Shown here: positions 10,900 through 22,074 of the stretch, in pieces | Layout: each line of letters starts with the position of its first letter | Numbering within the stretch: position 1 is the stretch's first letter | NCBI RefSeq assembly: GCF_056712565.1 | Contig: NZ_CM160072.1 | DNA length: 64,000 nt | Strand: one strand, 5' to 3' | Notes under the pieces: generated by a model | Told to the model about the DNA's origin: nothing | What the model saw: the letters and a program-made list of their open reading frames with translations, nothing else | Databases searched by the model: none | Program-made: the position numbers and the translations under genes

Positions 10900-11090
10900 G
10901 GCATGGTGGCCCGGAATCAGATTGCAGACAAAGTGAGCTTTGTTCATGCCGGATGCGGCGTAAATGCCTTATCAGGCCTACAAATTCAATAAATTGCAGG
11001 AATCACGTAGGCCTGATAAGCGTAGCGCATCAGGCAATTTTGCGTTTGTCATTAGACTTAATCCGGGCATGATAGCCCGGATTTCCATCA
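10900..11090. repeat. REP element cluster
   Basis: gccggatgcggcgtaaatgccttatcaggcctac and aggcctgataagcgtagcgcatcaggc palindromic units. Confidence 0.7.
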
Positions 11091-12026: not shown

Positions 12027-12962
12027 TTACAGTACCAGATCGCGATTCAGAACCAGTGCCAGTAACGCCTGGCGAGCGAAAATCCCGTTGCCTGCTTGCT
12101 GGAAGTACCAGGCGTGAGGCGTTTTATCCACATCCGTCGCAATCTCATCAACACGCGGCAGCGGATGCAGCACTTTCATATTGGCTTTGGCGTTGTGGAG
12201 ATCGCTGGCGCGAAGAACAAACTGCGCTTTCACGTTGGCGTACTCGGACGGGTCCAGACGCTCTTTTTGCACGCGGGTCATGTACAGGATGTCTACTTCC
12301 GCCATCACTTCTTCAATAGAGCTGTGCAGACTCCAGGCGATCCCTTTTTCATCGAGCATATCCAGAATGTATTGCGGCATTGCCAGCGCATCCGGCGCGA
12401 TAAAGTAAAAACGGTTGCCGTCGAACTTCGCTAGCGCCTGGGTCAGGGAGTGAACGGTGCGGCCATATTTCAGGTCACCAACCATTGCGACGTGGAGATT
12501 GTCCAGACGCCCCTGGGTTTCCTGAATGGTGAATAAGTCCAGCAAGGTTTGCGTCGGATGTTGGTTGGAGCCATCACCGGCATTCAGTACCGGTACATTG
12601 CCGGAAAACTCGGTGGCCAGGCGCGCTGCACCTTCCTGCGGATGACGCATCACTATCGCATCGACGTAAGTGCTGATAACCGAAATGGTATCGGCCAGCG
12701 TTTCGCCCTTTTTACCCAGTGATGTATTGGCGCTGTCGGAGAAGCCCACCACGCTGGCACCCAGGCGGTGCATGGAAGTTTCGAAAGAGAGGCGGGTGCG
12801 GGTAGAGGCTTCGAAGAAACAGCTGGCAATAACTTTGTGCTTCAACAGCTCTGGTTGCGGGTTCGCTTTCAGTTTCGCCGCTGTCGCCAGCACCAGATTA
12901 AGGTCATCGCGACTAAGGTCGTTTATGGAAATGATATGTTTCTGATATAGCGGATTAGCCAT
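12027..12962 (-). CDS. pyrB: aspartate carbamoyltransferase catalytic chain
   Basis: 311 aa; STRTR carbamoyl-phosphate binding motif and HPLP motif. Confidence 0.95.
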
Positions 12963-12965
12963 CTT

Positions 12966-13100
12966 TTATCTCCTGACGCCTGGGCAAAAAAAAGCCCCTC
13001 GATTGAGGGGCTGGGAATGGGTGATCAACGGGAAGAAAAACGGCAGGCCAGCGTCTTTTTTCAGACGCGGTAAGACAAAATGTCGAACACACTGAACCAT
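12966..13100 (-). CDS. pyrL: pyrBI operon leader peptide (44 aa)
   Basis: reverse-strand translation gives MVQCVRHFVLPRLKKDAGLPFFFPLITHSQPLNRGAFFCPGVRR. Confidence 0.85.
   Translation of the reverse strand: MVQCVRHFVLPRLKKDAGLPFFFPLITHSQPLNRGAFFCPGVRR
12984..13011 (-). terminator. pyrBI attenuator hairpin (gcccctcaatcgaggggc followed by U-run)
   Basis: GC-rich hairpin plus T8 run on the coding strand inside the pyrL ORF. Confidence 0.8.
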
Positions 13101-13189
13101 ACATCCTCCCGGCAAATTGTCCGGCATTATACTCAGCTCTGAGAGAGGATCAAGAAGATGATGCAGTTATAAAGCAAGGCAAACGGTTA

Positions 13190-13678
13190 TCATGAATATA
13201 TATTCAATTTTAATAAGTAATTAATTTGCTTGTGCACCAGGGCTGTACGCTTTACCACACGTGGTGCGACCCAAACGATATTGCTGCCAGCAATCACGCC
13301 AAGAATTTCTGGCAAAGCATGGAAATCAAGGATTCGTGCTACTGCCCGACCATATCCGGCGACGGTATGGATAAGGATAAATTCACCATTATGCTCGACA
13401 CTCAGGACCATTTCAGCGACGGATCGACCTGCGTCAGGTGTGGGAAGTAATTGAGGATTCACCGAATAAATTTTTTGTCCTTTTGTATTTCTAATTTTTA
13501 TGACTCCCAGCAATTTCAGTAGTCGTGAAACGGTTGACTGACTGATACTGTCAAAGCCATGGTTTTGCAAATCGCGGCGGATTTCCTCCTGTGAAAGATA
13601 ACTTTTTTCGGTAATCAGGCGCTGACAGACCGCCAGTTGCTTCTTTTCTTTGGCGGAGTAATCATCGTATTCCTTCAT
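13190..13678 (-). CDS. ArgR-family transcriptional regulator, candidate ADI-cluster regulator
   Basis: 162 aa from MKEYDD (RBS aaaggtg upstream); winged-helix N-domain (SQSTVSRLLKLLG) and ArgR-like C-terminal oligomerisation domain. Confidence 0.75.
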   Translation of the reverse strand: MKEYDDYSAKEKKQLAVCQRLITEKSYLSQEEIRRDLQNHGFDSISQSTVSRLLKLLGVIKIRNTKGQKIYSVNPQLLPTPDAGRSVAEMVLSVEHNGEFILIHTVAGYGRAVARILDFHALPEILGVIAGSNIVWVAPRVVKRTALVHKQINYLLKLNIYS

Positions 13679-13793
13679 AATGCACCTTTTATTTATTATT
13701 ACCTGATGATATTTTTCACATTTTATAATGTGAGAGTGGTTCATTTATCACTACACCAGATTTGAAGGCCGCTTTGATAAGCGGCCTGTCGCG

Positions 13794-15197
13794 TTAAATC
13801 ATCGCGGCGATACTCAGCACAATCATATTCAACATCGTGAGAATCAGCAGTAGCGGTGCTACCCATCTCAGATAACGGACCCAGGGTACACGGGCAATCG
13901 CCAGACCGCCCATCACTACCGCAGAGGTTGGCGTAATCAAATTAACCACCCCGGAAGCAGACTGATAAGCGGTCACCACCAGATCGCGTTGTACATGAGC
14001 AAAATCAGCGAGTGGAGCCATTATTGGCATCGTTAACACTGCAAGGCCGGAAGATGAGGGAACCAGAAAAGAGAGCAATACTTCCAGCCAATAGGTCACG
14101 TTGATGAAAACAGTGGTGGAAAGCCCTGAAACCAGATTCTCAGCACTGTGCAGAATTGTGTGCGTAATCATGCCGTTATCCATCACGACCACAATACCGC
14201 GGGCGATGCCGATAATCAGTGCCACACCAAGGAGATCCCGCGCGCCGTCAATAAAGGTACTGGTGAAGGTTTCTTCGCCCATGCGGGCAATGACACCCAC
14301 GATGACCGCAGCTGCCAGAAAGACAGCAGAGATTTCCGCCATCCACCAACCCAGTACCGCTACGCCGTAAATCATAAAGGCAAAGGATGCAGCAAAAAGT
14401 ATCAGGATCGCTTTGCGCGTGGGGGTAAATTCCAGCATCGTTTCTGAACGATTTCCCAGAAAATGCGCCTGGTTTTCAGCCATCTTATCCGCCACGATAG
14501 AGCTTTCCGGACTGTTGCGAACTTTGCGGGCATAACGCATAACCCAGTAAACACAAATCACGTAGCCTACTAACAGCAAAATAACACGCAGCAAAATGCC
14601 CTGAGTAAAGGGGATCCCTGCGGCGTTGGCAGCAATGACGGTAGCAAATGGGTTAATGGTTGAGCCCAGCGTGCCAATGCCCGATCCCAATAACACTGTG
14701 GCGGCAGCGACCAGAGGATCAAAGCGGGCAGCCATCATGACGGGCACCAGCAACGTGTAGAAGGGGAGTGATTCTTCCGCCATCCCATAAATAGTACCGC
14801 CAGCAGCGAAGAGCGCCATCAGGATCGGAATCATCCACTCTTCCCGACCATTAAGGCGAGTTGTCACTCGTTCGATACCGGCATCTATTGCTCCGGTTTT
14901 ATTTACTACTCCCAAAAATCCACCGATGATCAGGACAAACAGCGCGACATCAATCGCTCCCGCAGTGTAGGTTTGATGGTTGTACAAGCCGTCGATGGGC
15001 GCTAACAGGACAGCCGTAATACCCTGTGGTTGCGCCTCAACAGGTGCGTAAGTGCCTGCAACAGGAACTTCCTTTCCCAGTGCGGCATTTGTCACCATCT
15101 GATATTTTCCCGCAGGTACAATCCAGGTCATTGCCGCAACTAACGCAATCAGCACGAACAAGATGGTATAAGCGGTGGGAAATTTGAATTTACCCAT
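13794..15197 (-). CDS. YfcC-family polytopic membrane transporter, candidate arginine/ornithine exchanger
   Basis: 467 aa from MGKFKF (RBS ggag); many hydrophobic helices; sits between arcB-like and argR-like genes. Confidence 0.7.
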   Translation of the reverse strand: MGKFKFPTAYTILFVLIALVAAMTWIVPAGKYQMVTNAALGKEVPVAGTYAPVEAQPQGITAVLLAPIDGLYNHQTYTAGAIDVALFVLIIGGFLGVVNKTGAIDAGIERVTTRLNGREEWMIPILMALFAAGGTIYGMAEESLPFYTLLVPVMMAARFDPLVAAATVLLGSGIGTLGSTINPFATVIAANAAGIPFTQGILLRVILLLVGYVICVYWVMRYARKVRNSPESSIVADKMAENQAHFLGNRSETMLEFTPTRKAILILFAASFAFMIYGVAVLGWWMAEISAVFLAAAVIVGVIARMGEETFTSTFIDGARDLLGVALIIGIARGIVVVMDNGMITHTILHSAENLVSGLSTTVFINVTYWLEVLLSFLVPSSSGLAVLTMPIMAPLADFAHVQRDLVVTAYQSASGVVNLITPTSAVVMGGLAIARVPWVRYLRWVAPLLLILTMLNMIVLSIAAMI

Positions 15198-15253
15198 AAT
15201 GTGATCTCCATAATCACGGGCATACGCCACTCGTCGACGCATGCCCGTCAGGG

Positions 15254-16258
15254 TTAGTCGCCGAGAGTTGCTACCATCACCGCTTTAATGGTGTGCATCC
15301 GGTTTTCTGCTTCATCGAAAACAATGGAGTGGGCAGATTCAAAAACCTCATCAGTTACTTCCAGTCCTTTGAGGCCGTAGGCCATCTCGATCTCGCGTCC
15401 TACTGTGGTGTGCTCATTATGGAAGGCGGGCAGGCAGTGCATAAATTTGACTTCAGGGTTACGCGTGGCAGTAATCACCTGTTGATTGATCTGATAAGGT
15501 GTCATAAGACTCACTCGTTCTGCCCAGGCTTCTTTTGGCTCTCCCATCGAAACCCAAACATCCGTATAGAGAAAATCAACGTCGTATACGCCTTCTTCCA
15601 CATCCTCTGTCAGGGTGATTCTCGCCCCAGTCACGCTGGCGATCTCACGGCATTGTGTTACCAGCGCTTCATCTGGCCAGAAAGATTTTGGTGCCACCAG
15701 ACGGATATCCATCCCCATTTTTGCAGCACCAACCATCAGCGAGTTCCCCATGTTATTTCGGGCATCACCAAGATACGCAAAGCTCAGCTCTGGCAGCGTT
15801 TTGCCTGGCGCATGTTCCAGCATGGTCATTAAATCCGCGAGGATCTGTGTCGGGTGAAATTCATTGGTCAGTCCGTTCCATACCGGAACACCAGCGAACT
15901 CACCTAATTCTTCAACGATATTCTGACCATAACCGCGATACTCAATACCGTCATACATGCGTCCGAGTACGCGAGCGGTATCTTTCATTGATTCTTTATG
16001 GCCGATTTGTGAGCCGCTGGGGCCGATGTAAGTCACCTGCGCACCTTGATCAAAGGCCGCGACTTCAAAGGCACAGCGGGTACGGGTAGAGGATTTTTCA
16101 AAAATCAACGCAATGTTTTTACCGACCAGCGTTTGTTTTTCGTTTCCAGATTTCTTGGCGGCTTTAAGATTGATAGCCAAATCAATCAGGTATTGAATCT
16201 CTGCTGGGGTGTAATCAAGCAGCTTAAGAAAATTACGGTTTTTCAGTGAAGTAGCCAT
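15254..16258 (-). CDS. arcB: ornithine carbamoyltransferase (catabolic, ADI pathway)
   Basis: 334 aa from MATSLK; STRTR and HCLPA motifs; paralog of argI five kb away. Confidence 0.85.
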
Positions 16259-16268
16259 GGGGATGTCC

Positions 16269-17213
16269 TTATAAAAATGGATCAAGCGTGGTTATGGGGG
16301 TATCAAGGCGAATAAGAGTGCCTTTGTCTCCGGCGAGAATTTCCGGACCATCTGCAAGAGAGCCGATCCCTGCAATGCCCCGGCACTGACTAACAAACTT
16401 TGCGCAGGCGGTGACTTTCGGCCCCATAGACCCGGCATCAAACTGCATTTCGTTGAGTAATTCCGGCGTGACCTGGGCCAGCGGGCGTTGGGTTGGCTTG
16501 CCCCAGTCGAGATATACTGCGTCCGCATCAGTGAGGATCAACAAGGCGTCAGCATGGATCTGACTTGCCAGTAGCGCGGCTGAAAGATCTTTGTCGATAA
16601 CCGCTTCAATCCCATGGTATCCATCGGCTTTTTCAACCACCGGAACACCACCGCCACCATTACAGATCACCAGATGATCGTGGGCGATCAGTGTCTGGAT
16701 GGCATCCCGCTCGACGATGCGTTTAGGTTGTGGAGAAGGTACGACCCGGCGGAAAGAGTGACCATCTGCTTTGAAAACCCAGCCTTTTTCTGCCTGTAGT
16801 ACCTGAGTCTGAGCGTGGTCATAAATTGGGCCGATGTACTTAGTTGGGTTACTGAAGGCGGGATCGTTGGCATCCACTTCAACCTGCGTCAGCAGAACGC
16901 TGATTTCACGTTGTGGTAGTTGATTTTTCAGCGCCTGTTGTAGCATGTAGCCGATCATCCCCTGGCTTTCGGCCCCCAGAATGTCGAGTGGATAGGGAGC
17001 GACATGGGCATAGGCGCTATTTTGAAGTGCCAGAAGTCCAACTTGTGGACCATTCCCGTGAACCAGTACAACCCGCCAGTGTTGAGTCAGTTGGGCGATA
17101 GTTTTAGCCGCAAGATCGATATTTTTACGTTGGATTTCTGCTTCGAGTGGTTCGCCTCGTTTAAGCAGGGCATTACCGCCGAGAGCGATAACCAGTGTTG
17201 GTTTGTTTTCCAT
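16269..17213 (-). CDS. arcC: carbamate kinase
   Basis: start placed at [17 protein letters not shown] (RBS aaggaag); amino-acid kinase fold. Confidence 0.85.
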
Positions 17214-17223
17214 GATCTCTTCC

Positions 17224-18447
17224 TTAGATACCGTCACGATGCAAAGGGCAACTCATGCAACGTGCGCCGCCACGTCCGCGGCCTAATTCATCACCGGGGA
17301 TGGGTAAAACGGTGATGCCTGCTTTGTCATATTTTTCGTTAGTCCAGATGTTGCGCTCGTAGCCCACTACCACTCCCGGCCGAAGCGTGAGCACATTGTT
17401 AGCGTCATTCCACTGTTCGCGTTCTGCCTCAAAGGCATCACCCCCCGTGGTGATTAAACGTACCTGGTCAATACCGAGGGCTTTTTCGATAGCATGGAGG
17501 AGTGTGCTTTCTTGAGTACGTTTCAGGCCGCCGTGACCGTCAGGTGTTAGCGTCCAGCAATTAACATCCGGGCGCACAACTTCGGGATAAACCGAGAAGG
17601 TGTCGATATCGATATGAGTCATAACGGTGTCAAGATGCATACAGGAGCGGTGTTTAGGCAGCTCAACAGCGATTACCCGTTCAGCCTGACGATGTTTAAA
17701 CAATGCCTGAGCAAGAAACTCGATTCCTTGTGGCGTGGTGCGTTCAGACATGCCGATCAACACGGCCCCCCGACCAATCACCAGCACATCACCACCTTCT
17801 AACGTGGCGTGGTCATAATTAATATTCTCGTCGCCGAAATATTTAATAAATTCGCCGCCAGCAAATTGTGGATGCCAGCGATAAATAGCGCGTAGATTAT
17901 TGGTTTCACGTTGGCGAGCAGGTTTTGCCATTGGATTAATCGATACACCGTTATAAATCCAGCATGAGGTATCACGCGTAAATAAATGATTCGGTAACGG
18001 CTTCATAATGAAATCATTAATATCGTGGGTATCAACCACCATATTTTTAATTGAGGCGGGAATTTCACTATAAGTCAGCCCACCACTTAAATGACGAGCA
18101 AGGTCCCGGTGTGACATCTCTGCAAGCCAGGTGCGAACGTCAGTAGCAAACGTAGGGCCGAGTCGGTAATCTGATATTTGTGTTTCCAGTAACCAGCTTT
18201 TGGCTTCCGGGATATCCAATGTTTGTGTTAGTAAATCAGTGAGTAACAGAACTTCTATCCCTTGCTGGCGCAGCGTATTGGCGAAAATATCATGCTCTTC
18301 ACCTGCCCGCTCAACGGACAATACATCGTCAAATAACAACTCCTGGCAATTGGATGGTGTTAGACGTTTCAGACTGAGATTTGGGCGATGCAACATAACG
18401 CTGCGTAGTTGTCCAATTTCAGAACCAACATAATGCTTTTCCATCAT
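17224..18447 (-). CDS. arcA: arginine deiminase
   Basis: 407 aa; ADI-family sequence with C-terminal catalytic cysteine region (ARCMSCPL). Confidence 0.88.
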
Positions 18448-18567
18448 TATTCCTTTAACACTTTTTCAAAAATAAAGAGGAGATGGCTGCAAACAAATTA
18501 AATGCTTGTAGTCAGGTCTGTTCAGTAATTTTCAGATGCAATGATTCAGTTTATTTCTTCCAGAAAA

Positions 18568-18583
18568 TGTGACGACTTTCACA
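18568..18583. promoter_or_regulatory. perfect CRP/FNR-family palindrome TGTGA-N6-TCACA upstream of arcA
   Basis: tgtgacgactttcaca read directly, about 125 bp upstream of the arcA start in a 674-bp AT-rich intergenic region. Confidence 0.5.
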
Positions 18584-19094
18584 CCAGTGATGATATTAAT
18601 AATCGCAGTTAATAATATTTGATGCGGTTCTGATAAATGATAAAGAAACAAAATACGATAATGCATTAATACGCAAATATACGCAGAGTTATTCTTCGTT
18701 GTTAATTGATTGTTTTATTTTTCAGGAAATGCCTTTAAGTATAAAGCATTGATATTTATGTATATTTTAATATTCATTGCATATCTATGCGAAAGAATAA
18801 GGTGATTATTTTTCACAGCACTATTTTCACGGGATAACTATGACAGCACGGGCATTAAAAGCTAAGAAAATGAACTGTGATCTGACTGAGAGTTTTCTTT
18901 TAACATATGCAATAACAAGATATTAGGACCAAAATACATAGCTAAGTTATAAGATTTATGCAGCAAAACTGCATACAAAATTACTCCTGCTTAACATCAG
19001 TACAACATCTCCAGCAATAAACATGCGCAAGGGCAAAACCTGATGATTTTTCTATGGTGAGAGGTGGCTTTTTTTCGTATAAGGAAAGAAGTGA

Positions 19095-19574
<480 letters not shown>

Positions 19575-19619
19575 GTGATCACTGCCGGGGGGCGACCTGT
19601 GCCGCCGCCCGGCAAAACG

Positions 19620-20624
19620 TTATTTTGCTAATGTAGCGACCATAACAGCTTTTATGGTGTGCATCCGGTTTTCTGCCTGGTCAAAGACAATACTTGCCGG
19701 AGATTCAAAGACTTCATCGGTGACTTCCATTCCACCATACAGACCGAATTCTGCGGCCATTTTTTTACCCAGCGTGGTTTGCTCATCATGAAATGCAGGC
19801 AGACAGTGGAGGAACTTAACCTGCGAATTACCGGTCAGGGCCATCATTTTGCTATTCACCTGATAGTCACGCAGCAGGGCAATACGCTCCGCCCATTTCT
19901 CTTTGGGCTCACCCATCGATACCCAGACATCGGTATAGATAAAGTCTGCACCTTTAACCCCAGAGGCGATATCTTCCGTCAAGGTGATTTTACCCCCGTG
20001 TTTTTGTGCCAGAGCACTGCATTCGGCGACCAGCGCAGCTTCCGGCCAGCATGCCTGTGGCGCGACCAGACGCAAATCCAGACCGGTAAGCGCCGCAGCT
20101 TCGAGCATCGAATTGCCCATGTTGTTACGCGCGTCACCTGCATAGACCAGCGTCATTTCGTTGAATGCTTTGCCGGGCAAATGCTCCTGCATGGTGAGGA
20201 GATCCGCCAGCAGCTGCGTGGGGTGGAACTCATTGGTCAGGCCGTTCCATACTGGCACGCCAGCGTATTCCGCCAGTGTTTCGACAATCTCCTGACCATA
20301 GCCGCGATACTGAATACCGTCATACATGCGACCAAGCACGCGGGCAGTGTCTTTAATCGACTCTTTGTGACCAATCTGGCTGCCGCTTGGGCCGAGATAA
20401 GTAACGCGAGCACCCTGGTCATATGCGGCAACTTCGAAAGAGCATCGGGTACGGGTCGAGTCTTTTTCGAAGATGAGCGCGATGTTTTTGCCAGTGAGTC
20501 TGGCTTCTTCTTTACCGCTTTTCTTATCGGCTTTCAGCTTCGCGGCTAACTGCAACAAGCTGTTGAGTTCAGCTGGCGTGAAATCGAGTAATTTCAGGAA
20601 ATGCTTATGATAAAACCCGGACAT
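19620..20624 (-). CDS. argI: ornithine carbamoyltransferase (anabolic)
   Basis: 334 aa from [20 protein letters not shown] and HCLPA motifs; ARG boxes upstream. Confidence 0.93.
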
Positions 20625-20649
20625 AGATCCCTCCTGTGGCCAACGCCTT

Positions 20650-20688
20650 AATGAATTAAAATTCAATCTATATGGATGATTATTCATT
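20650..20688 (-). promoter_or_regulatory. argI operator: two tandem ARG boxes 3 bp apart
   Basis: aatgaattaaaattcaat and tatggatgattattcatt match the TNTGAAT-N4-ATTCANW consensus. Confidence 0.8.
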
Positions 20689-20785
20689 TGCAAGTCTAAA
20701 GCATAAATCTTTGTCACAAAGGTGGAGGCAATGTCAGTGGTGTGTGACAATAAGAGTATCGGCAGGACATTAAGAGGAATGAGCC

Positions 20786-21202
20786 ATGGCAAACCCGGAA
20801 CAACTGGAAGAACAGCGTGAAGAAACACGTTTGATTATTGAAGAATTACTGGAAGATGGCAGCGATCCGGACGCGCTGTACACCATCGAACACCATCTTT
20901 CCGCAGACGATCTGGAAACCCTGGAAAAAGCAGCAGTTGAAGCGTTTAAACTCGGTTACGAAGTGACCGATCCAGAAGAGCTGGAAGTTGAAGATGGTGA
21001 CATCGTGATTTGCTGCGACATCCTCAGCGAGTGTGCGTTGAATGCCGACCTGATCGATGCCCAGGTTGAACAACTGATGACGCTGGCGGAGAAATTTGAC
21101 GTTGAGTACGATGGTTGGGGCACTTACTTTGAAGATCCTAACGGCGAAGACGGCGACGATGAAGATTTTGTCGATGAAGACGATGACGGTATTCGTCACT
21201 AA
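20786..21202 (+). CDS. rraB: RNase E inhibitor RraB (acidic protein)
   Basis: 138 aa, very acidic C-terminus ([17 protein letters not shown]). Confidence 0.9.
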
Positions 21203-21209
21203 TTAAGCG

Positions 21210-21320
21210 TTGACGACAAAGGCTGCGTTACCTGATGCGCTACGCATATCAGGCCCAGGTAGTTCCTGCAACCTGGTGAATTTGTAGCCCGGATAAGGCA
21301 TTTACGTCACATCCTGCATA
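21210..21320. repeat. REP element
   Basis: ctgatgcgctacgcatatcaggcc and gcccggataaggcatttacg palindromic units. Confidence 0.6.
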
Positions 21321-21349
21321 CTCAAAAAGCACGTGGTTAATGTTCGAAT

Positions 21350-21378
21350 GCCCGCGAGTCTAAGCTCGCGGGCATTTT
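21350..21378. terminator. bidirectional terminator between rraB and yjgM (gcccgcgag-tctaa-ctcgcgggc + T-run)
   Basis: perfect 9-bp stem followed by attttt. Confidence 0.75.
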
Positions 21379-21882
21379 TCAAAGTTTGCGTAGCATCCGT
21401 ACTTCACAATCGACATGACCCGTGCAGCCAAGCGCATAGTCGATATGCTCAAAGCCCAAATGCTCATAAAGCGCAATGGCTTCCTTTAAAAAAGCGGTCG
21501 TTTCCAGATAGCAGCGTTTGAAACCCATTTCTCGCGCCTGCTCCATTGCCATTAAGGCCAGTTTTTTTGCCAGCCCTTTGCCGCGGATAGCCGGAAGAAA
21601 ATACATCTTTTGCAGTTCGCAAATGTCTGACTCACTCCCGGTTAATGGCGCAATCCCACCGCCGCCGACCACTTCACCCTCGTACTCAACCACCCAATAT
21701 GCGTGGCCAGGCTGACTATATACTTGATACAGCTCGTCAAGGTTCGGATCGGCGACGGTGTAGCCTTTATCAGCGGTAAGACCGTATTCGGCGGATACCT
21801 GACGAATGACGTGGGCGATAGCAGGATTATCGGCGACGGTAAGTTTGCGCAAACGGAGTGCGGGAGAAGCGACAACATTCAT
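21379..21882 (-). CDS. yjgM: GNAT-family N-acetyltransferase
   Basis: 167 aa from ATG at MNVVAS (the track ORF begins at an upstream TTG); acetyl-CoA binding motif region (RGKGLAKKL). Confidence 0.85.
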
Positions 21883-22074
21883 AGCATAGCTCAATTTCAA
21901 ATGTATGATTTATAGCTCACTTTAATACCACCCTCGCTTAGGTGGTGCAAGAAGAAGATAAATCAGAAAATATTACGCATATCTCTCTGAGATAAAGCGT
22001 ATTCTAGGCGAACCAGTATCAATTGACTGGAATTATTATCGGTATGAATGGAATTTATTTTAGGGATATAGTTC

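Follow-up and report, generated by a model that had tools for sequence, protein, structure and literature searches.

Why does the convergent gene pair tabA and argI, which is interrupted by the large gene yjgL in E. coli K-12, lie only 45 bp apart at this locus? The original prediction, made from the letters of the window (the whole 64,000-nucleotide stretch analyzed here), had pointed out the short spacer and the apparent absence of yjgL, had contrasted it with the K-12 arrangement, and had proposed that the junction is either an ancestral empty site or a deletion scar. The open reading frames confirm the convergent arrangement and give the spacer its exact limits (Table 1), and a blastn comparison of window positions 1 to 34000 with K-12 yjgL returned no match. 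The K-12 arrangement was given correctly as well: MG1655 carries a 1,815-bp yjgL between tabA and argI and does not share the direct adjacency seen here. The GC-rich imperfect inverted repeat described for the spacer is also present, as GCCGGGGGGCGACCTGTGCCGCCGCCCGGC at positions 19584 to 19613.

Of the two proposed explanations, the deletion scar fails on the evidence below. The ancestral empty site holds for the architecture of the junction, although not in the sense of an unfilled K-12 allele. We consider it probable, at roughly 80%, that the junction represents the ancestral, never-occupied site, present here by way of an alternative, imported B2/F-type haplotype that extends from position 13137 to about 20028, with yjgL a separate insertion in the majority haplotype and with a hairpin at the 3' ends of the two genes.

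Table 1. Positions of the main features of the tabA-argI locus in the window
Feature	Position	Strand	Size	Description
tabA (yjgK)	19122-19574	+	150 aa	Open reading frame; divergent allele; YhcH/YjgK/YiaL (DUF386) family
tabA-argI spacer	19575-19619		45 bp	Between convergent stop codons; probable never-occupied form of the K-12 yjgL site
GC-rich imperfect hairpin	19583-19614			7 bp, G.G mismatch, 4 bp; 8-nt loop
argI, anabolic ornithine carbamoyltransferase	19620-20624	-		Stop codon at 19620-19622; mosaic gene
arcA, arginine deiminase	17224-18447	-		Open reading frame; first gene of the ADI operon, divergent from tabA
Divergent haplotype block	13137 to ~20028		~6.9 kb	Replaces K-12 yjgH-bdcA-bdcR-tabA-yjgL-argI 3' end

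The junction in E. coli genomes

The window segment matches E. coli HS13-1 at 100% identity and Nissle 1917 at 99.9%. An assembly artifact can be dismissed, since the same junction occurs at 95% identity or higher in 596 complete E. coli genomes. These genomes, out of the 5,426 searched, carry the window haplotype at 95 to 100% identity and always on the chromosome; among them are Nissle 1917, IAI39, an O18 strain, and an APEC O2:K1:H4 strain. The typical carriers of the haplotype are phylogroup B2/F strains, for example Nissle 1917 and IAI39. In the same set, yjgL was detectable in 4,802 of the 5,426 genomes, and it is very variable, with sequences that are 83 to 100% identical and differ in length.

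An Escherichia-clade junction probe found a contiguous match in five genomes. Two of these, HH97 and HH45, have the window haplotype, and the other three, UPEC132, GN02350, and N50, have identical matches. In UPEC132 (locus L084, NZ_CP040456.1), the order is pyrL-tabA-argI with nothing else between, and pyrB and valS are 93% and 95% identical to those of K-12. We considered this order as a third E. coli haplotype and rejected it, as UPEC132, the one genome examined, has pyrB at 93%. UPEC132, GN02350, and N50 are probably cryptic-clade Escherichia filed as E. coli.

Adjacency of tabA and argI across Enterobacteriaceae

A TabA alignment was used to scan GTDB species, each represented by a single genome, and gave 80 loci, drawn from Citrobacter, Salmonella, Klebsiella, Kosakonia, Kluyvera, Enterobacter, Trabulsiella, Atlantibacter, other Escherichia, and further genera, with no locus from E. 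albertii or E. fergusonii. Neighboring genes were mapped by tblastn, and stop-to-stop spacers were extracted from the 77 loci that contain both genes (75 GTDB species representatives, the window, and K-12). The spacer is at most 130 nt in 59 of these 77 loci (median, 49 nt), between 131 and 600 nt in 6, and longer than 600 nt in 12. Short spacers typically fold stably: 55 of the 59 have a fold z score below -2, though their sequences are often unrelated, and a hairpin between tabA and argI is evidently maintained. Across Enterobacteriaceae, tabA and argI most commonly lie side by side with a hairpin between them.

yjgL was found in only two of the 77 loci, K-12 and a contig from a MAG filed as Lachnospiraceae bacterium (L008, SFGN01000138.1). 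The latter has the order yjgH-bdcA-bdcR-tabA-yjgL-argI at 97 to 100% amino acid identity to K-12 and is almost certainly E. coli contamination of the MAG bin.

An empty site is expected to show adjacency in outgroups, a spacer homologous to the outgroup spacer rather than a novel fusion, and flanks of the same allele as the occupied site. Adjacency in outgroups is seen in the 59 short spacers and, within Escherichia, in four other lineages, L005, L006, L010 (Escherichia sp. E1V33), and L011 (E. whittamii), whose spacers measure 44 to 46 bp. The window spacer is homologous to those four spacers and to the spacers of Trabulsiella, and the alignment has the common core GCCGG..GGCGAC..GCCGCC..CCGG. 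The flanks of the window junction are not the same allele as the flanks of the occupied K-12 site, and the junction is not K-12's own pre-insertion allele.

A hairpin near both stop codons

Hairpins between convergent genes can act as bidirectional intrinsic terminators or as protective stems at 3' ends, as seen by Term-seq and SEnd-seq. The window likewise has a GC-rich stem-loop near both stop codons, 9 nt past that of tabA and 5 nt past that of argI. Its predicted folding energy is -28.7 kcal/mol on the plus strand and -27.8 kcal/mol on the minus strand, with a z score of about -3.1 relative to dinucleotide shuffles, and GCCGGGGGGCGACCTGTGCCGCCGCCCGGC occurs once in the window, where 0 matches are expected by chance. 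Stem pairs were read by eye from individual folds; MAFFT left the Trabulsiella and Escherichia hairpins out of structural register. Among about five informative sequences we found one compensatory change, a G-C pair in the window that is A-T in L006, and in L006 the G.G mismatch of the window is missing from both arms.

A GC-rich stem-loop directly after the stop codon is one of the two features of a canonical intrinsic terminator, the other being a U-rich tract 3' of the stem. Directly 3' of the stem, a U-tract is absent on either strand (the sequences there are AAAACGTTATTTT on the plus strand and AGTGATCACTTACG on the minus strand), and the hairpin is therefore not a canonical intrinsic terminator. 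In this it differs from the tabA-argI spacer of a Citrobacter amalonaticus locus (L004), which has a canonical A-tract, hairpin, and T-tract. A consensus terminator scan did not call the hairpin, and an Rfam scan of positions 12500 to 23500 with E values up to 1 returned nothing at or near the spacer and only subthreshold chance matches elsewhere. The likeliest role of the hairpin would be to terminate the two convergent transcripts or, as a stem, to shield their 3' ends.

We also asked whether the hairpin could be a mobile palindrome of the REP/BIME type rather than an element of transcript ends specific to this locus. The arm pattern GCCGG..GGCG / CGCC..CCGGC looks REP-like, and genuine REP-like sequences lie in the same spacer of several other species (e.g., L012, L016, and L076). 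However, the REP consensus at up to 3 mismatches matches four other sites in the window and misses the hairpin, the hairpin lacks the CTAC/GTAG tail and is single copy in the window, and its position is conserved in Escherichia and Trabulsiella. A REP/BIME origin is thus highly improbable, and we rejected it for want of a consensus match and of a second copy. Canonical REP/BIME copies, unrelated to the junction, are located at 1032-1065, 10948-10981, 26711-26744, and 26807-26840, and they account for short, scattered blastn matches between the window and K-12 intergenic regions.

yjgL as a probable insertion in the majority haplotype

In an alignment of K-12 with L010, homology extends up to the end of tabA and returns at the argI stop codon. 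The K-12 insert between these points is 1,992 bp long with a GC content of 32.6%, compared with a locus average of 50%; it takes the place of the entire spacer and contains yjgL with flanking hairpins of its own. The original prediction had suggested that alignment of this junction might reveal flanking direct repeats, but the ends of the K-12 insert have no word of 6 bp or more in common.

These observations bear directly on the proposal that a K-12-like ancestor lost yjgL by a precise or near-precise deletion that left 45 bp behind. Such a loss would agree with yjgL being the majority state (4,802 of 5,426 genomes), and the right-hand flank of the insert in K-12 (GTGATGCCGGG...CCCGGCA) loosely resembles the window hairpin. 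Against this, the blastn comparison of window positions 1 to 34000 detected no yjgL-derived sequence, the insert ends lack direct repeats, and tabA and the 3' end of argI differ from K-12 by 21 to 25%, beyond what a deletion explains. In addition, outgroups that have no yjgL share a homologous spacer with the window, and this sequence is wholly missing in K-12. Because K-12 lacks the ancestral spacer, a deletion of yjgL could not regenerate the spacer of the window. We therefore rejected the deletion scar, which has next to no chance of being correct given the missing remnant, the missing repeats, the outgroup homology, and the loss of the spacer from K-12.

Under the preferred reading of a never-occupied site, an AT-rich 2-kb segment with yjgL (icaR in Shigella) would have inserted separately, in the haplotype of most E. 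coli, and taken the place of the hairpin spacer there. The scanned loci are without E. albertii and E. fergusonii, while icaR is frequent in E. albertii (PMC9241512), and this may affect the timing assigned to the insertion.

A divergent 6.9-kb block surrounds the junction

The RefSeq annotation of Nissle, whose locus is near-identical, gave the gene content of the block. It consists of an argR-like gene, a yfcC/arcD-like gene, arcB, arcC, arcA, tabA, the spacer, and the last 409 bp of argI. In Nissle the order is pyrBI-pyrL, an arginine repressor-like gene, a YfcC-family transporter gene, a catabolic ornithine carbamoyltransferase gene, arcC, arcA, tabA, argI, rraB, yjgM, yjgN, and valS, whereas in K-12 it is pyrL, yjgH, bdcA, bdcR, tabA, yjgL, argI, and rraB; the difference between the haplotypes therefore far exceeds the presence or absence of yjgL. 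The cluster of arcA, arcC, a catabolic ornithine carbamoyltransferase gene, a transporter gene, and a regulator gene has the composition of an ADI operon, and ArcA matches the Pfam ADI family with an E value of 1e-135. Between arcA and tabA, the divergent intergenic region at 18448-19121 (674 bp) has a GC content of about 30 to 36%, compared with about 50% in its surroundings, and the regulatory region for both the arc operon and tabA presumably lies there.

Both ends of the block are abrupt and lie within collinear flanks, as expected of an allelic replacement. By blastn, the window is 97% identical to K-12 up to about 13136-13188, has no match across the arc genes, is 75% identical in tabA, and is 92% identical on average from argI to yjgM. 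At the left boundary, the window, K-12, and UPEC132 are alike up to about 13136, just upstream of pyrL, and all three part at the same nucleotide. The right boundary falls inside argI: positions 19620-20028 contain 87 mismatches to K-12 (409 nt, 21%) versus 14 in positions 20029-20624 (596 nt, 2.3%). Alongside an analysis of sliding-window identity, the maximum chi-square breakpoint was placed at 20029 (chi-square, 86). argI is thus a mosaic of a foreign-type 3' portion of 409 nt and an E. coli-type 5' portion of 596 nt, and it is intact, with the Pfam domains OTCace_N and OTCace both present. Within the foreign portion, the 100 nt at 19920-20019 are 98% identical to L009 (Escherichia sp. MOD1-EC7003) and neighboring stretches are 75 to 83% identical, which points to additional small-scale mosaicism of argI among Escherichia.

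The locus closely resembles that of Salmonella and Citrobacter, where pyrBI, the ADI operon, yjgK, and argI follow in the same order and orientation as in the window, again with a short, hairpin-bearing tabA-argI spacer. Window ArcA is 94 to 96% identical in amino acid sequence to the ArcA proteins of these two genera. Nucleotide identity to the Salmonella/Citrobacter locus is just 77 to 84%, however, so no sampled species is the donor, and no donor lineage was found among the 80 scanned loci. A plasmid origin of the block was considered and rejected: arc genes were present on 250 plasmids, but at 77% identity and in no case together with tabA or argI. These plasmids, which are mostly conjugative and come from Escherichia, Klebsiella, Shigella, and uncultured bacteria, have an arcA-arcC pair (e.g., NZ_CP103719.1, 58737-60838) that is a separate plasmid-borne ADI lineage.

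Native and putatively imported alleles of tabA

Window TabA is a clear family member, matching Pfam DUF386 (PF04074) over residues 1 to 147 with an E value of 3.8e-43 and 147.4 bits against a gathering cutoff of 26.5. Its identity to K-12 is 83% in amino acids and 74.9% in nucleotides, and nucleotide identity to the other Enterobacteriaceae tabA genes examined is 71 to 77% throughout. Of the 80 loci, C. amalonaticus comes closest (89% amino acid and 77% nucleotide identity), and the best match of window arcA, at about 84% nucleotide identity, is likewise to Citrobacter. By comparison, K-12 tabA is 96% identical in nucleotides to L010, 92% to L005, 89% to L011, and 88% to L006, lineages whose pyrB and valS are 92 to 93% and 96 to 97% identical to K-12. 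The K-12-type tabA looks, on balance, vertically inherited within Escherichia. Escherichia sp. MOD1-EC7003 is an exception, with an arc operon of its own and with tabA at 79% identity to K-12 and 75% to the window; divergent tabA alleles are therefore not unique to the window haplotype.

These comparisons allowed us to weigh the opposite polarity, in which arc-tabA-argI is the original E. coli state, kept by vertical inheritance in the early-branching B2/F strains, and the K-12-type locus is derived or imported. The order pyrB-arc-tabA-argI is common to Citrobacter, Salmonella, Kosakonia, Trabulsiella, and Escherichia sp. MOD1-EC7003, as this scenario would have it, and at the neighboring yjgN the aberrant allele belongs to K-12 and not to the window. 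Vertical descent does not explain, however, why window tabA is no closer to any Escherichia (74 to 76% nucleotide identity, including to L005, L006, L010, and L011) than to distant genera, nor why K-12 tabA follows housekeeping divergence (96% to L010, where pyrB and valS are at 93% and 97%). Inside argI, moreover, divergence drops abruptly from 21% to 2.3%, which marks a recombination junction. Taken together, we regard vertical inheritance of the window arrangement as unlikely.

We favor instead an import, in which the block would have been acquired by homologous recombination from an unsampled enterobacterial donor with the order pyrBI, arc operon, tabA, argI, and would have displaced the native segment yjgH-bdcA-bdcR-tabA, possibly together with yjgL. 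Because no donor was found among the species representatives, we only infer the direction of transfer, and the foreign donor with it; the word "imported" rests on patterns of divergence. In yjgN (22075-23262), the protein encoded in the window shares 92 to 96% identity with its counterparts in four other Escherichia lineages, 87% with that of L009, and only 42% with that of K-12. K-12 thus carries an aberrant or imported yjgN, and the interval from pyrL to valS is therefore a patchwork in both lineages.

Cargo at the same position in other genera

Unrelated cargo of 4 to 7 kb occupies the tabA-argI spacer in other genera (L037, 8445-14466; L030, 8445-12602; L013, 8445-15792; and also L027, L058, L071, and L077). 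It includes SIS, PfkB, amidohydrolase, DcuC, and GntR genes in Klebsiella oxytoca, a NapC/NirT cytochrome gene with a molybdopterin oxidoreductase gene in one C. amalonaticus genome, and DHDPS-like, dehydratase, and MFS genes in Citrobacter sp. R56. The spacer looks like a recurrent hotspot of insertion.

A broader proposal would make the whole pyrL-argI interval, and the tabA-argI hairpin in particular, a recurrent hotspot of integrase-free insertion and replacement across Enterobacteriaceae. On this view, an unsampled lineage would have supplied the B2/F allele long ago, selection might have kept it since, and the hairpin itself might be the target of recombination or insertion. In its favor are at least four unrelated cargos in the same spacer in different genera and at least three structural haplotypes that break at the same nucleotide upstream of pyrL. 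We hold this extended version to be speculative and quite unlikely.

Relation to published observations

The finding is already known in substance and represents ordinary strain-to-strain variation, because yjgL/icaR-negative B2 strains and IAI39 (PMC9241512) and the ADI pathway of Nissle (PMC11610980) have been reported. Silué et al. (mSphere, 2022; PMC9241512) described yjgL as the orthologue of Shigella icaR, a substrate of type III secretion, and found icaR/yjgL in all A, B1, and E strains examined and lacking in five of six B2 strains and in IAI39. They proposed that icaR entered by chromosomal insertion near argF/argI, and noted that strains without yjgL have an extra argF (ornithine carbamoyltransferase) gene and are without bdcR and bdcA (PMC9241512). 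Exceptions exist within B2, among them E2348/69, where icaR is present. Our analysis concerns the same locus and the same absence of yjgL, and the extra "argF" is the catabolic ornithine carbamoyltransferase gene of the arc operon. The yjgL-less strains were also stated to have lost tabA (PMC9241512). Here, by contrast, tabA is present as a divergent allele, annotated merely as "YhcH/YjgK/YiaL family protein". Neither the limits of the block nor the mosaic structure of argI nor the spacer homology is described in that paper. In Nissle, the genes of the ADI pathway were reported to be highly expressed (PMC11610980).

The junction is therefore best read as part of a known lineage marker, which carries little weight alone: B2/F-type E. 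coli, including Nissle 1917, have an ADI operon and lack yjgL/icaR and the biofilm-dispersal genes bdcA-bdcR. Contrary to the published loss, tabA is kept, and since the allele is divergent, results obtained with K-12 tabA may not transfer directly. The foreign 3' end of the mosaic argI is relevant to typing or phylogeny that uses argI or this region.

The G run at 19587-19592 is 6 Gs long in the window and 5 Gs long in Nissle 1917, giving spacers of 45 and 44 bp, respectively, and the extra G turns a one-sided bulge of the hairpin into the G.G mismatch; the spacer of IAI39 is 44 bp according to annotated coordinates. Downstream of ahr/yjgR, at about 33890-35300 in the window (placed from positions 29988-31400 of the Nissle-type locus L001), a tRNA-Leu gene precedes a gene for a site-specific integrase, which suggests a genomic island integrated at tRNA-Leu.
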